NCBI RefSeq assembly: GCF_964204865.1
Contig: NC_135259.1
Location: forward strand, 12,524,001-12,588,000
DNA length: 64,000 bases
Direction of reading: 5' to 3'
Origin: Styela clava
Lineage: Eukaryota
The notes beneath the pieces are model-generated. The model saw only the letters and a list, made by a program, of their open reading frames with translations, did no database searches and was not told the origin of the DNA. Both the position numbers and the translations under genes were made by a program. Positions 40,771 through 47,192 of this stretch are shown here, piece by piece (within the stretch, counting starts at the first letter, position 1; each line of letters starts with the position of its first letter).

Positions 40771-42572
40771 ATGAATTACAAAATGAAGATTACACCTGTT
40801 TTGCTCCTTTGTTGCTTTATGGTAGCAAGTAAGTTGTATTTCATATTTTCTATTAAATTTCAATTGGAATAAATTCAACTTTTTTTAACGGCAATTGTTG
40901 TTATACCTTTTTATTGAAGTGCAATACAAATAAAACATTTCAGAAGCTCTACAGTTTGAAGAATTTGACTACAACGAAGATTTTGATGAAAATCTTTTGG
41001 ACTTTTTGGACAAAAAAAATATTGAAGCTGAGATCGACCGCGATTTTGACGATGATGCAGACTTGGAACAAGATCTTGAATCAAATTTAGAAGCCGAATT
41101 CGAACGTGACTTTGAGCCTGATTATGAAAGGGATCTAGAGGTTTGTACTATATAGCCACTAGGACAAGACAGCGACAACAATGCATGCTTTCACCTTAAA
41201 AATACCACATTGTGAAATTTGTAGAGTTGCCCCGAATTTACGTAGAATCTGCTGACATTATGTGGTTGTGCTTGTCCGTTAGTCTAACAGTCTAACTTCA
41301 CGTAAAAATATAAGCACATAATAAATAGTCAATGGCCATCTTATATTTGTGACCAATTTTTCCACTAAATTTGACTGTGCTTCCATGCAACCTTGCATGC
41401 AAATAAATTTTGCTTTCAAATATTTAAAATATTACTATATCAAACCTTCACTTTTTTATCTACGTTTGTTTTAGTCATGTCATACATATTGTTCCACCAA
41501 AGTTTTGATAGTGACTGCAGAACAAAATATTTTAGGACTGTAGAAAGTGTGCCTCTACGACTTTTCTAATCTTGCTCTTCTTTATTTCGAGAACTGATTT
41601 TTTAAATAAAAATCATTATAATTACCTAAATATAAAATTGTATTATTTTAATCCCATTGGTCACACGTTATCTTCTTTCTAGAAATCAAAATCGAAGAAC
41701 TTTTGTGAAGAGTATAAATTATGTGAGAAAGAAGGAGGCGAGTTCAAAATTGGATGTGCAAAGTTTAGGCAGGATTATGTACACAACAATGTATTCCCTA
41801 ATGTCTGGCGTAAGTTAATTGCAAATTTAAATTAAAAATTGTCTGCATCCGACTGCAGCTTATCGAAAGTTTATTGCGAGATCATATTTTTGCCTGCGAT
41901 CACAACGATCGGTGAATATGAGGAGCTCCTTAGATATATCATTGAACAGTACAGTTTCACCCAAATGAAATACATATATATATCTACTAGGAGAGGCAAA
42001 TTTCGAAAGGCCACACCTAACACTATTCTAATAACTCAAAGTTATAATAAACAACAACAGTTTAGCCAAATGAGCTTGGCTGTATATCCTCTATGTGTTT
42101 GAACTCATTTGAGCTCCCCCCCCCCCCCCCCCCCCCCCCCCCGCCCCTCCAAAAAATACTCAAAAATTAAAACTACAACTACAAAATTTCATTTTTAAAA
42201 ATGTTGAGCACATTACAGTCAATTCTTTTCAAGTCTTCTTTAATCAGTCCAATTGCAAATCAAATCCTAGTTTGTCGTTTTGCTTCTCATCAGTTTTTTT
42301 TTATTATTTGTTTAAATTTTTGAAAGAATTAAAGTATTAATAACTTTTCTACGTTCTAACGTCGTGAAATATCTGAAAATAATTAAAAACAATATTTGAG
42401 AATGATATACTATGTATCGGTAGATAACTATTGTCGACCCTCTGGTCATTGAACTATGTATATGGACTAGAGTTATGAAATTTACACATTTTTTTGTACA
42501 GGGAAAAAAGCTGGAAAATTGTGCGTCAAGTGTCAAGAGAATTGCAAAGGAAACTCAGGAAAACATCCGTGA
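40771..42572 (+). CDS. Secreted prepropeptide A: acidic pro-region plus cationic 6-Cys domain (exons 40771/40783-40828, 40944-41140, 41683-41809, 42502-42572; 146-150 aa)
   Basis: Signal MKITPVLLLCCFMVAKA; D/E-rich exon ending DLE; mature KSKSKNFCEEYKLCEKEGGEFKIGCAKFRQDYVHNNVFPNVWRKKAGKLCVKCQENCKGNSGKHP; model supported by a paralog with identical intron phases 1,0,1. Confidence 0.88.
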
Positions 42573-45500
42573 AACAGATTTGGTAAAGAATTTACGACCA
42601 TGTGTATAACAGAAAGAGAAAGAAAAAATATAAATAGATTTAAAATTTGATTCTTTTTTTTTTCGAGTTCTCATTTCAACCCAAAAACTGATCAATGAAA
42701 CTATGTGTTTTTTTTTTGTAATGAATAAAAAAATGCTAACTTTATCAAAAACAACAAGCCAATTTGAATTAATTTACTAGCAACGTGCAATCGAGATTTT
42801 GCTCATCATCAACATGGTATCATTCACAAACAAGATGTCTTCCAAAGTATTAATTAAAAAACTAGAACAATATTTGCCATCCTTGATTGTTACAACATTC
42901 AACATTGACATTTTCACCACATCTTATTCCGTTTTTAAAAAATCACGTAAACTGAGAAGTTGATCTATAGTTGCTTTCATAAATCTGTAATTAGCCGTTT
43001 TCGGTAGTGAATGTTTAATTTTTTTTATAATTCTGAGTAATGCTTTCATTCAATGTGCAAAGTCATTGATGTTTTGATGTAACTTATTCTATTGATTATT
43101 TTTTTATCAGTATAATAATAGACGTAATTTATGGATATTTGGAATAACCGTGGTATTGTCCCAAAAGTTATTTTCTTGAATTCCATCATGCAATGAAAAA
43201 ATACAATGTAATTCTAATACTCAGAATACTAACTCTTCCCAATTTATTTTCTGCTAACTTTCGTGACTTTACGATTTAACGTGTTAATATATGCACAAGA
43301 ATAAATTTGTGATCATAGTAAAGTTCGAAACGAATGCATTGAATGGTTATATCTGCTGTAGGTGTGAAGTATACCGCACATCTTTCAAAAGGCATGCGGG
43401 GCGCAATAATTTCCTTCTTCAAACAATTGCCGCATTAAGGCGCAATCGCAACTCGTATTACTGTGTCAAACGCTTGTGACAGTGAAACGTGTATGTGGCA
43501 ATGTTTTCATTCTCCAACCTCACTTTAGTGTTGCCTGTCTTTGTTTTATCGTTCTTAGTAAGTTAGAAATTTGGTTACATCACATATACTTGCGTTAAAG
43601 TTCAAAGTGTATTTCGTTATCTGTTATTTGAATCAATCCGATTGTGCAACCTTATAATATAAGAGTATTCGGCGTCAAAATTTATAGTGCGCTTATATTA
43701 TCCTCCGAAGGATTCAGTGGGGACTTCGCTAAAGTATGTTTAATAATAGTACTGAGGGAAGAATACGCAAATAAGGACATTCTTTCCCTATATTTTATAA
43801 AAAAAAAAAAAAGAGCTTGCTGACTTTTTATATTTGGGAAATCTAAGATATATGGGTAAAAATGATAATGCAAAACCACTGAGTTTTGTACGACTGAGCA
43901 ATGTATACAGAACTATCGTAATTGGTGATACATATTGTTGAAAAAAAAGAGTGTGGGAAAATCCAATACAACTTCACAAGGACGTCTCCGCGTGAAATGC
44001 CTTGAATTTCACGCCACAAAATGTCAAATAATACGTTAGATGAATAAATTTGAAGAAGCGGTTCCAGAATGTTCACACATATTGATTTGAAGCTCGAAGC
44101 TCTTAAAACTGTCAACTGACTACAATCTTCGGAACTTCTTGCATCCGTCGCGTTGAAATATACCATTGCTTAGCATTGTTGAATTTAGGAAGAGTTCGCA
44201 CACGAGCGAGTTCAACAATTGGCCAAATAACTTACTACTATAATTCTTTTGCGCCAACAAACTGATTCTACTTAGCAATAGCATAGACCATATGTCGGCA
44301 ATAAGCGAGTGCAATTCCCGCATCACGTCGTTAAGCGTAATGATTGATTTCGACATTGATGTAGGATCACGAGTATTTGACTTAATTTTCCAATGATACT
44401 GCAATGAATGACTGTGTCGCCTTGAGTAAATAAAGTGGATATTTTATAAACTTTCGTCTAACAATAGTTGATAATTGATATAAATGCTGCTACTTGGTGT
44501 GAGAAATCGGCTTGCTTATATCATCTGCTCGCCCCAAATGATATGGTATAACTTCAATCTTATTTCCCGCGTAGCTGGTCTCCTGTTGCCAGGACAATTA
44601 CAAAAATTATTGTCGGAAAACACATTTGAAAATCAAGCAATGATATGAAGTTGTCCTGTTATTTCGAATTTCTATGAAGTTGACAAATTCAAAAAATTTG
44701 GGCGTTGATTCTTGAGAATAAAAGTATATATACGCGAATAGTTGAATTTGGGCGTTGAGTTGATTTAGTCATGTTGTTAGTCTGATTGTAGGATGTCCAG
44801 GTCCAAATACCTTGTTTTGTGTCTAAATTCTGCCACGTTCGGGTTTTCTGACTATTAAATTGACATACCGCCAGGAATAGGCGAAATTCAAGTTATTGGC
44901 TTATTATCATTGTTGATGACGATACGAGCCAAAGCGGAAATTTTGCATAATACAAAGAACACTTTATGCTGGTAAAAATTTGAAAGTGGGTTGCTCAGAA
45001 AGTTAAAACGGTGAAAAAAAAAACTCATATTTTTCGTGTCATTAGTGTTTAAAATTTGCTTTATGGAATCTTGTTCAGAACTGTCAAAAGAAGCAAAATA
45101 TAATAATAATTATACAGGAAGTTGGTATCGATAATGGGGTAATGTAAAATGATTTACCACACGGTTTCGAGTTCCTCTTCCGCTTTAGGCGTTAATTGCT
45201 TTTTTGTATCCGATACGAGTCATTATAGAGTTATAAATTACAAAAATATAAATTATAATTGTTTCAATCTGACAAAAAAGTTAGTATAAATGCATGATCG
45301 CCATGTGTATATGAGCATGACAATTATGGTTTTGGCATGAGAGCACGGCTCAAGTTTTCAGTTCAAGTTATGTGCTAGAACTCCATTTTTAAACGGAATG
45401 AGCGTTTATACTAGAATTTTTGCGTAGAGTTACGTTTATAGTCCAAACCCCGTTTGCACCCAAAAATACAGGTATTGAGCTAACTTTATAAAGTTTATTC

Positions 45501-45853: not shown

Positions 45854-47192
45854 ATGAAGATTACTCTTCTTCTCATTTGTTGTTTTATTTGCGTGGGTAA
45901 GTTCATATTTTAACTTTGCTAAAAATTAAATTAGTAAAAAAATTATTCATGGAAATATTAAATCCACTATGTTATTAACTTAGCATTCAAACACAATGTT
46001 AATGAATGTAAATATCTTAGGAACTCAACCTTTTGAGGACGATGACTACAGTGAAGATTCAGATAAAAAATCTGAGAAAGAATACGTTCGAGACTTCCTG
46101 GACGAAATGAATGTTGAAGAAATTGTACCGGATCTTGTGAGTTTCAAAGCCAAATATGAGAGGGCTTTTGAACCAGACGATGAAATGGATTTGGAGGTTG
46201 GTACAACTCAATATGAGTCTACTTATGTTTTCTATAAACTCACGTTTTCATGATCTGATGATCTGGTTTAAAAGTGATTTAATTTTTGCGTTAACCAGTA
46301 TCATTCAGTGTAGCTATAGTAGCTATATGGAAAAAAACAAATGATATAAAATATTTGGAACTAATGAATTCTTTCAACTAGTGAATAAAGAAAATGAATT
46401 TTACAACTATATACCATCTTGTGGGATTATGTCCATACATAGGGCGCACAGGCCTATAAGACTCAACGTTTTTTAATGGTTATCGAGTTACCGTACAAAG
46501 CTCATTCAATAAAAAGCTCAGTGGTTATTGTATTTTATTCGAAAAAAGCGAAAAATGGCCGTTTTTTATAAAATAGTAGTACCGGTACTAGTTTCGAGTG
46601 CAGACAATAATACTCAAAGCACTACCTGATCCATACTTTAGGCGCACCGGCTTGTAAGGTTTCGGGGGAGAAAATTTAGAGAAAAGTGTGTTTTATGGTC
46701 TTTAAAATACTGACTCGTCTAATTCTAACACTTCATTTTTTCAGAAATATTCTTCACAATCCTCGTTTTGTGATGTATTTAATTTATGTGAGAGGGATTT
46801 GAATGGATTCACAGTTACATGTGCAGAATTTGGAAATGTTTACAAGCGTGATCCAATTTTGTTCTCTACTATCTGGAGTAAGTTGGAAAAAAATTCTAAC
46901 TAAAATTATATCAACAAAGGTTATAAAAAAATTGAAATTGATGGTGGTAACCATAATCTTCGTCTTTTTGAATAGTAGAAAGAAAAGCTTTTGAATTCTG
47001 TCAATGCTAGGAGTAAAAATTAAAAAATTGGTTCCTTTTTTGGTTCCTTTTTTGGTTCCATTTTTGACTTTTCCTACAGAAAAGGTAGCTGTAAAGTTGT
47101 GCGGCAAGTGTCAAAAATATTGCGAGGAACGAAGAAAACTTGCTATATCAAGAAATGAACAACAGCATAAATTTTTTCCCGGCGACGTGTGA
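45854..47192 (+). CDS. Secreted prepropeptide B, paralog of A (exons 45854-45896, 46021-46196, 46745-46877, 47080-47192; 154 aa)
   Basis: Signal MKITLLLICCFICVG; acidic exon ending FEPDDEMDLE; mature KYSSQSSFCDVFNLCERDLNGFTVTCAEFGNVYKRDPILFSTIWKKVAVKLCGKCQKYCEERRK...; AATAAA at ~47237. Confidence 0.88.

Follow-up and report, generated by a model that had tools for sequence, protein, structure and literature searches.

A so far unnamed family of spliced genes for precursors with an acidic piece and a six-cysteine domain in the ascidian Styela clava

A stretch of 64,000 nt from Styela clava (contig NC_135259.1, 12524001–12588000, + strand; “the window,” to which positions refer unless a contig is named) carries two genes, A and B, that belong to a so far unnamed family with about eleven copies in the genome. 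They encode precursors that open with a hydrophobic stretch, followed by an acidic piece and then by a basic domain with six cysteines, a scaffold that had no match in the searches made. On balance, we lean towards the product being a secreted host-defence peptide against microbes, stored behind its acidic pro-piece. We favour this reading because of the layout and charge of the precursor, the splicing, the turnover of copies, the conserved front joined to a variable domain, the antibacterial six-cysteine peptides of other ascidians, and a possible amidation.

Gene structure and splicing

Translating the coordinates gives two four-exon genes on the + strand, A at 40771–42572 (150 residues) and B at 45854–47192 (154 residues), in which all six introns run from GT to AG, with phases 1, 0, 1 in each gene. 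Exon 1 is hydrophobic in both, so a signal peptide is predicted, from hydropathy only; exon 2 is acidic, with 45% D + E and a net charge of −24 in A, and 38% and −15 in B. Exons 3 and 4 together hold the six cysteines, spaced 5, 10, 24, 2, 3 in A (net charge +8) and 5, 10, 25, 2, 3 in B (+5). An earlier reading of the window from its sequence only (the sequence-only reading) had given the four exons, the phases, the cysteine spacing and the charges of +8 and +5, and all of these were reproduced. The cysteine domains of A and B are clearly similar, scoring 124 against a maximum of 61 among shuffled sequences (n = 5000).

The exon joins of the sequence-only reading are backed by RNA-like contigs, in which all six introns of A and B are removed, while the DNA-like run X10 has none of the six joints. 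In gene A, intron 1 is spliced in runs X1, X5, and X9, intron 2 in X5 and X9, and intron 3 in X1 and X5, and also in X9 with variant letters at the joint; in gene B, intron 1 is spliced in X5 and X9 and introns 2 and 3 in X9 only. The spliced contigs thus come from three runs, of three studies, and the label “RNA?” that these runs carry is a software guess with no record of them as RNA. Genes A and B are real and spliced. Upstream of gene A (40400–40770), its RNA-like contigs reach 285–370 bases or more beyond the start codon, unspliced (X1, X9), and cross an upstream open frame that has a one-base insertion in X9.

The family in the genome and in databases

Searches of the genome with exon 3, whose copy counts are lower bounds, returned 11 copies: A, B, and nine on another contig (C2), where they form three clusters near 14.67, 16.63, and 26.29 Mb, placing the family at four places in all. 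On C2, five copies are open over all four exons and share the intron phases of A and B, which makes seven of the 11 open; one of these five has a 9-residue in-frame deletion between Cys3 and Cys4. The other four are broken, by a stop in exon 1, by a stop in exon 2 (with exon 4 not found), by a frame change in exon 3, and by the absence of exon 1 together with the beginning of exon 2. A and B had been described as a tandem pair; they are indeed two paralogs, but only two of the 11 copies and not just a pair. Start codons vary among copies: A has two in-frame ATGs (40829–40943 region), some copies retain the second only, and the 26-Mb cluster retains the first only.

Outside the A/B locus, RNA-like contigs show one C2 copy with its three introns removed; of another, c16_2, they contain only fragments and one intron-3 joint that has 7 other letters. 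A second exon-4-like piece, which has no last cysteine, lies 2.3 kb behind the 14.67-Mb copy (L021 near 9520, C2 about 14669520). In the tail after Cys6 of one C2 copy (L051:1767–1789), 9 of 23 bases differ in X8 and X9 contigs, and the tail of the database protein P0004 is different too; this tail is either strongly polymorphic or that of a further paralog. A search with exon 4 of gene B returned only itself, and no acidic exon common to other families was found.

Although described as unrecognised, the genes are not unannotated: database models of the family already exist under the species label Styela clava as “uncharacterized protein.” The model of gene A (P0006) continues into intron 3 and lacks Cys4–6, and the spliced contigs contradict it. 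Another database protein, P0005, matches in exons 3–4 the copy that has lost exon 1, yet is itself whole, which hints at differences between individuals. No description of the family was found in the literature searched, and six LOC identifiers returned 0 papers in main texts, with supplements and subscription papers outside that search.

The cysteine domain

All six cysteines are invariant across copies, as are several hydrophobic positions, at a core identity of 37–83%, and the fixed hydrophobic residues (F, L, F, A) adjoin the cysteines. Two other positions thought to be conserved are less so: the W is Y in two of the seven open copies, and KLC.KCQ holds for A and B only. Every open copy has, where exons 3 and 4 meet, an aromatic residue and then a patch of basic residues, which could serve as a surface for binding membranes. 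The domain is 55–81 residues long (6.4–9.5 kDa), with an isoelectric point of 9.0–10.3 and a net charge of +5 to +14 in the seven open copies; the C2 copies carry +10 to +14, and A and B are the least cationic. The whole precursor is net acidic in each case, at −3 to −13, and the acidic piece retains motifs such as FE..FE.D.E..L.

AlphaFold2 gave a mean predicted local distance difference test score (pLDDT) of 54 for full-length B, confident in the cysteine domain only, and a pLDDT of 69 with a predicted template modelling score of 0.51 for the domain of a C2 copy modelled with 7 sequences. The latter is predicted to fold into a helix (2–9), a short hairpin (15–20), a helix (24–30), and a long helix (39–61). 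Cys4, Cys5, and Cys6 sit at i, i + 3, and i + 7 of the modelled long helix, that is, on one face, and each is therefore likely to pair with one of Cys1–3.

Searches for relatives

The sequence-only reading had seen no characterised family in these genes, and this was borne out by Pfam, NCBIfam, PDB sequences, Foldseek, VIA-align, and word-based protein searches. Word-based searches of 5.8 billion proteins found no homologs outside S. clava: family members were 8 of 2745 candidates (all S. clava) in one, 8 of 1391 (the same 8) in the next, and 0 of 1092 in the last. A profile of exon 3 only, run against 1.84 billion representatives, had three matches, two of them family members and the third P0009, a 1044-residue repeat protein that we reject as a relative, 12 positions being matched 13 times. 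How far these collections cover other tunicates is not established, so restriction to one species does not follow.

Neither Pfam nor NCBIfam gave a match above cut-off. Pfam, queried with 8 full-length and 7 domain sequences, listed none of the ShKT, saposin-like, CHH, vanabin, and defensin families at E values as high as 10, in a range where the HMMER filters drop most matches above about 0.1. To our knowledge, none of these five has a spacing equal to 5, 10, 24/25, 2, 3. One PDB sequence search had 0 matches and the other calmodulin alone (E = 1.6). Among fold searches, Foldseek had no match at E ≤ 0.001; the ESM Atlas gave no usable feature match, with its structure matches all below the bar for naming; and the best Z of VIA-align, 5.4 for the full model and 3.9 for the domain (root-mean-square deviation 8.6, 61 aligned, pLDDT 69 model), is under the level the tool treats as meaningful. 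Saposin, ShKT, defensin, CHH, and vanabin were not listed in the fold searches either, from which their exclusion does not follow, and a missing fold match is no proof of a new fold.

Two origins of the scaffold were considered and set aside. In exon 3, a short helix leads into a D-x-N-G-F-like turn, as in the EF-hands of calmodulin-like proteins, but the loop ligands are not conserved and the profile match fails (probability 8% over 13 columns; at most 4 bits for family members against 51–65 for the training motifs). In a test picked after the likeness was seen, two of the seven members outscored almost every shuffled sequence (0 and 2 of 300 doing better), at 2–4 bits. A circularly permuted saposin, considered because of its cysteine spacing, found no support.

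Unequal evolution of the two parts of the precursor

Codon-model tests were run with our own script. Omega, the ratio of nonsynonymous to synonymous change, was 0.35 for the pre-pro part (p = 2e-6 against 1) and 1.13 for the cysteine core, where it is indistinguishable from 1 (p = 0.64). On all seven open copies, a partition test separated the two, at 0.43 and 1.11 for the cysteine domain (p = 0.002), and a site test was significant for the cysteine domain (p = 0.007).

Among C2 pairs, which are not independent of each other, nonsynonymous divergence (dN) of the core exceeds intron divergence in 9 of 10 (mean 0.22 vs. 0.14), while that of the pre-pro part is below it in 10 of 10 (mean 0.10); between A and the C2 copies, core dN is about equal to that of the introns. 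Five database proteins were also compared with the copies of this genome, paired by best match with allelism assumed, excluding P0002 and P0008, which show no difference from this genome, and P0005, whose counterpart is broken. In the pre-pro part the five differ at 3 of 406 positions, against 22 of 322 in the cysteine domain; once the tails are excluded, the count for the domain is 12 of 272 (p = 0.002). Of the 10 coding variants listed in contigs, 7 change a residue, 6 of these in exons 3–4.

Constraint on the cysteine domain is clearly weaker than on the front part, and positive selection on the domain is suggested but not settled. The term “fast-evolving” in the sequence-only reading is thus apt as far as the domain varies faster than the acidic piece (omega about 1.1 vs. 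0.4), whereas the significance of selection is lost on smaller subsets.

Processing of the precursor

Cleavage had been proposed at a non-dibasic site between DLE and K. This site is not supported: it is the phase-0 junction of exons 2 and 3, where four other open copies have LT-K, LT-E, or LT-D. Three of the seven carry KR directly ahead of Cys1, unlike A, B, and two others; P0005 carries RxxR. No cleavage site is conserved among copies. Three of the seven open copies end in glycine, a possible amidation signal. A cut within the domain, at the basic residues between Cys3 and Cys4, would give a two-chain product; it was considered and rejected: the patch lies in a predicted helix and is not cleanly dibasic in all copies. 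A prediction of the complex of pro-piece and domain gave no answer (score 0.00).

Comparison with known peptide systems

The closest lead are turgencins A and B of the ascidian Synoicum turgens, which have an amidated C-terminus, are largely helical, and have nested disulfides Cys1–6, Cys2–5, and Cys3–4; their cysteines are spaced 3, 4, 8, 2, 3 within 35–36 residues that carry the motifs CxMAC and KKxGG, and their cDNA was not obtained and their genes were not cloned (PMC7024374). Like them, the family here is ascidian, cationic, and largely helical by prediction, with six non-adjacent cysteines and a C-x2-C-x3-C end after a KK-containing stretch; amidation is possible for three of seven copies, and the L-C-x2-C-Q-x2-C-K run of gene A is also present in turgencin B (by eye, with no statistics). 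Unlike them, it has the spacing 5, 10, 24/25, 2, 3 in 55–81 residues, lacks CxMAC, and does not match KKxGG exactly. The sequence-only reading had noted both the shared end and the different N-terminal spacing, and both agree with the printed sequences (PMC7024374). The nested turgencin pairing would be compatible with the predicted helices. We treat homology as a candidate and do not file the family as a member of the turgencins; a new three-disulfide fold, forming a long version of a turgencin-like superfamily in which Cys1–3 would staple onto the C-x2-C-x3-C helix in the nested pattern, seems to us unlikely. The ascidian St-CRPs are cysteine-rich and antibacterial, but neutral and of 2 kDa (PMC13208793), and so unrelated in size to the family here. 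The only six-cysteine ascidian peptides in the papers compared, turgencins and St-CRPs, are antibacterial.

Among other systems, the best analogue, and also the best warning, is MgCRP-I of Mytilus, a lineage-restricted family with a conserved pre-pro part containing acidic residues, a hypervariable cationic six-cysteine domain, pseudogenes, and positive selection (PMC4558851). Its build and selection pattern are those of the family here, and its function is unknown. We regard it as an unrelated scaffold, an analogue only: it has a C-C-CC-C-C array of 25–38 residues, a pro-region of about 15 residues, and a conserved KR/RR site, whereas the domain here has no adjacent cysteines and KR before Cys1 in three of seven copies only.

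Styelins and clavanins had been offered as ascidian models for the anionic pro-piece. They and Ci-MAM/Ci-PAP come from the same animal group and pair a cationic with an anionic part in a secreted precursor. The analogy fails on order, however: in the Ciona helical peptide precursors the signal is followed by the cationic and then the anionic part, and the cut in styelins and clavanins falls ahead of acidic residues, D or DD (PMC7387483), while here the acidic exon 2 precedes the cationic exons 3–4. In addition, those peptides are linear helices, screened without cysteine, in contrast to the six invariant cysteines here. Strongylocins differ in cysteine spacing from the family here. These sea urchin antimicrobials have a signal, a pro-sequence, and a cationic six-cysteine peptide of 5.6–5.8 kDa (PMC4805251), hence the same order in another deuterostome, but their pro-sequence has 16 residues vs. 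about 60–70 here, and they matched in none of our searches.

Function: Evidence and alternatives

From the sequences, we infer secretion, cleavage, disulfides, target, and activity as follows. The hydrophobic start would route the precursor into secretion, and while the precursor is stored its cationic domain may be masked by the acidic piece. Proteolytic cleavage would follow close to where exons 2 and 3 meet, at KR or RxxR in some copies and at another site in A and B. The released domain of 55–81 residues would fold into helix, short hairpin, helix, and long helix, with Cys1–3 stapled to Cys4–6 on one face, and its basic and aromatic surface could bind anionic microbial envelopes. The signal (by hydropathy), pro-region, cationic cysteine-rich domain, conserved front with variable domain, and gene turnover expected of secreted pre-pro cysteine-rich defence peptides in general are all present, with selection significant on the full set only. 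The birth and death of copies (11 at four places, 7 open, 4 broken) counts for the defence reading.

Several observations weigh against it. The charges of +8 and +5 hold for exons 3 and 4 together, but within the cysteine core A and B carry only +3 each, and the best hydrophobic moments are moderate (0.53–0.66). No cleavage site is conserved among the open copies, the domain is about twice the size of a turgencin, and synthetic MgCRP-I peptides had no antimicrobial, antifungal, insecticidal, or cytotoxic activity (PMC4558851). The selection tests were not significant on subsets: for the partition, p = 0.14 on five copies (leaving out B and the copy with the deletion) and 0.27 on a further subset of four; for sites, 0.083 and 0.071. 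The pre-pro part is also significant in the site test, through 2 sites in low-complexity, poorly aligned sequence, and an omega near 1 also fits relaxed constraint.

The inactivity of MgCRP-I also speaks for a possibility that we find doubtful but worth keeping in view, namely that the cysteine domain acts on a protein target, as a secreted ligand or inhibitor (such as a feeding or fouling deterrent, an enzyme inhibitor, or a factor in self or gamete recognition or in signalling), and is not a membrane-active antimicrobial. It would have the same precursor layout and the same pattern of variation; the hydrophobic residues that stay fixed next to the cysteines point to a folded mini-protein whose surface varies; and the positive charge of B is far below that of the C2 copies, with further charge lost in one database copy of A. 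Against this, neither Pfam, PDB sequence, nor fold searches found a likeness to a toxin, hormone, or inhibitor family; “toxin-like,” as the family had been called, has no specific support. Moreover, five of the seven open copies are strongly positive and balanced by the acidic piece, so a charge-based target fits better.

If the precursor stayed uncut, it could be a two-part acidic/basic secreted protein of tunic, mucus, or adhesive, or a metal binder through its acidic piece and cysteines. The missing conserved cleavage site and the clear purifying selection on the acidic piece (omega 0.35, p = 2e-6 against 1), which keeps its motifs, would suit such a protein; however, it is the cysteine domain and not the acidic piece that varies, Pfam reported no vanabin or other metal-binding family, the EF-hand likeness fails, and conserved pro-regions are usual in processed precursors (PMC4558851), so that we hold this to be quite unlikely. 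Very unlikely, finally, are recently amplified, weakly constrained genes whose cysteine domain drifts with little current function: four of 11 copies are broken, the mature omega is not distinguishable from 1 (p = 0.64), and the subset tests are not significant, but all six cysteines and several hydrophobic positions are fixed despite the 37–83% core identity, A, B, and one C2 copy are fully spliced, and the pre-pro part is under purifying selection.

Coordinates and surroundings in the window

A and B lie between an M1 aminopeptidase gene (ending near 36400) and a membrane-protein gene (from about 49700), and C-type lectin exons flank the region. The exons at 5795–8603 are possibly those of a secreted lectin with an acidic N-terminal piece, and the frame at the end of the window is likely a non-LTR (long terminal repeat) retrotransposon. 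Nothing seen ties the neighbouring genes to the A/B pair.

Features of genes A and B and of their surroundings, in window positions
Feature	Position	Strand	Evidence or remark
Gene A exon 1: start codon and predicted signal peptide	40771–40828	+	Hydrophobic stretch, mean Kyte-Doolittle 2.7; joint 40828–40944 in X1, X5, X9
Gene A exon 2: acidic piece, net −24, putative pro-region	40944–41140	+	Translation, spliced contigs
Gene A exon 3: Cys1–Cys3; predicted helix, short hairpin, helix	41683–41809	+	Translation, spliced contigs; fold predicted on paralog
Gene A exon 4, coding part: basic patch, C-x2-C-x3-C, stop	42502–42572	+	Translation, spliced contigs
Gene A 3′ untranslated region	42573–43674	+	Covered by RNA-like contigs (X1 pieces to 43674; X9 42566–43669)
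Gene B exon 1: start codon and predicted signal peptide	45854–45896	+	Hydropathy (Kyte-Doolittle); joint in X5, X9
Gene B exon 2: acidic piece, net −15	46021–46196	+	Translation, spliced contigs
Gene B exon 3: Cys1–Cys3	46745–46877	+	Translation, spliced contigs in X9 only
Gene B exon 4, coding part: C-x2-C-x3-C, longer tail, stop	47080–47192	+	Spliced contigs in X9 only
Gene B 3′ untranslated region	47193–47538	+	Covered by one RNA-like contig (X9)
Exon with hydrophobic start, then long acidic D/L-rich stretch	5795–6235	+	
Exons resembling a C-type lectin domain by eye	7666–8603	+	No Pfam match in the two frames scanned
C-type lectin exons	13049–13568, 18940–19989, 58075–58749	+	Lectin_C at 13209–13568 and 58423–58749
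Thr/Ser-rich exons	near 17900–18550		
Multi-exon M1 aminopeptidase gene	about 24500–36410	+	Peptidase_M1 matches, weak ERAP1_C
Multi-exon hydrophobic protein	about 49700–55900	+	No Pfam/NCBIfam match above cut-off in the exons scanned
118- and 289-bp tandem repeats	about 60000–61200		Before the reverse transcriptase frame
780-codon open frame with reverse transcriptase domain	61660–63999	+	RVT_1, E = 4e-26

Implications

A variable cysteine peptide behind an acidic pro-piece is a familiar kind of precursor, which limits the surprise; the scaffold is the new part. The turgencins and St-CRPs of the papers cited here were isolated as peptides, and to these the family adds spliced genes, an exon structure, and seven natural variants with charges of +5 to +14. 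Should the turgencin-like superfamily exist, genes for such ascidian antibiotics would here become known for the first time, and their acidic pro-piece at the N-terminus would set them apart from the ascidian precursors known so far. The family is directly testable by expression and assay; if active, it would provide a disulfide-stabilised scaffold from the sister group of vertebrates, in an acidic-piece-first order not seen in the known ascidian helical peptides.

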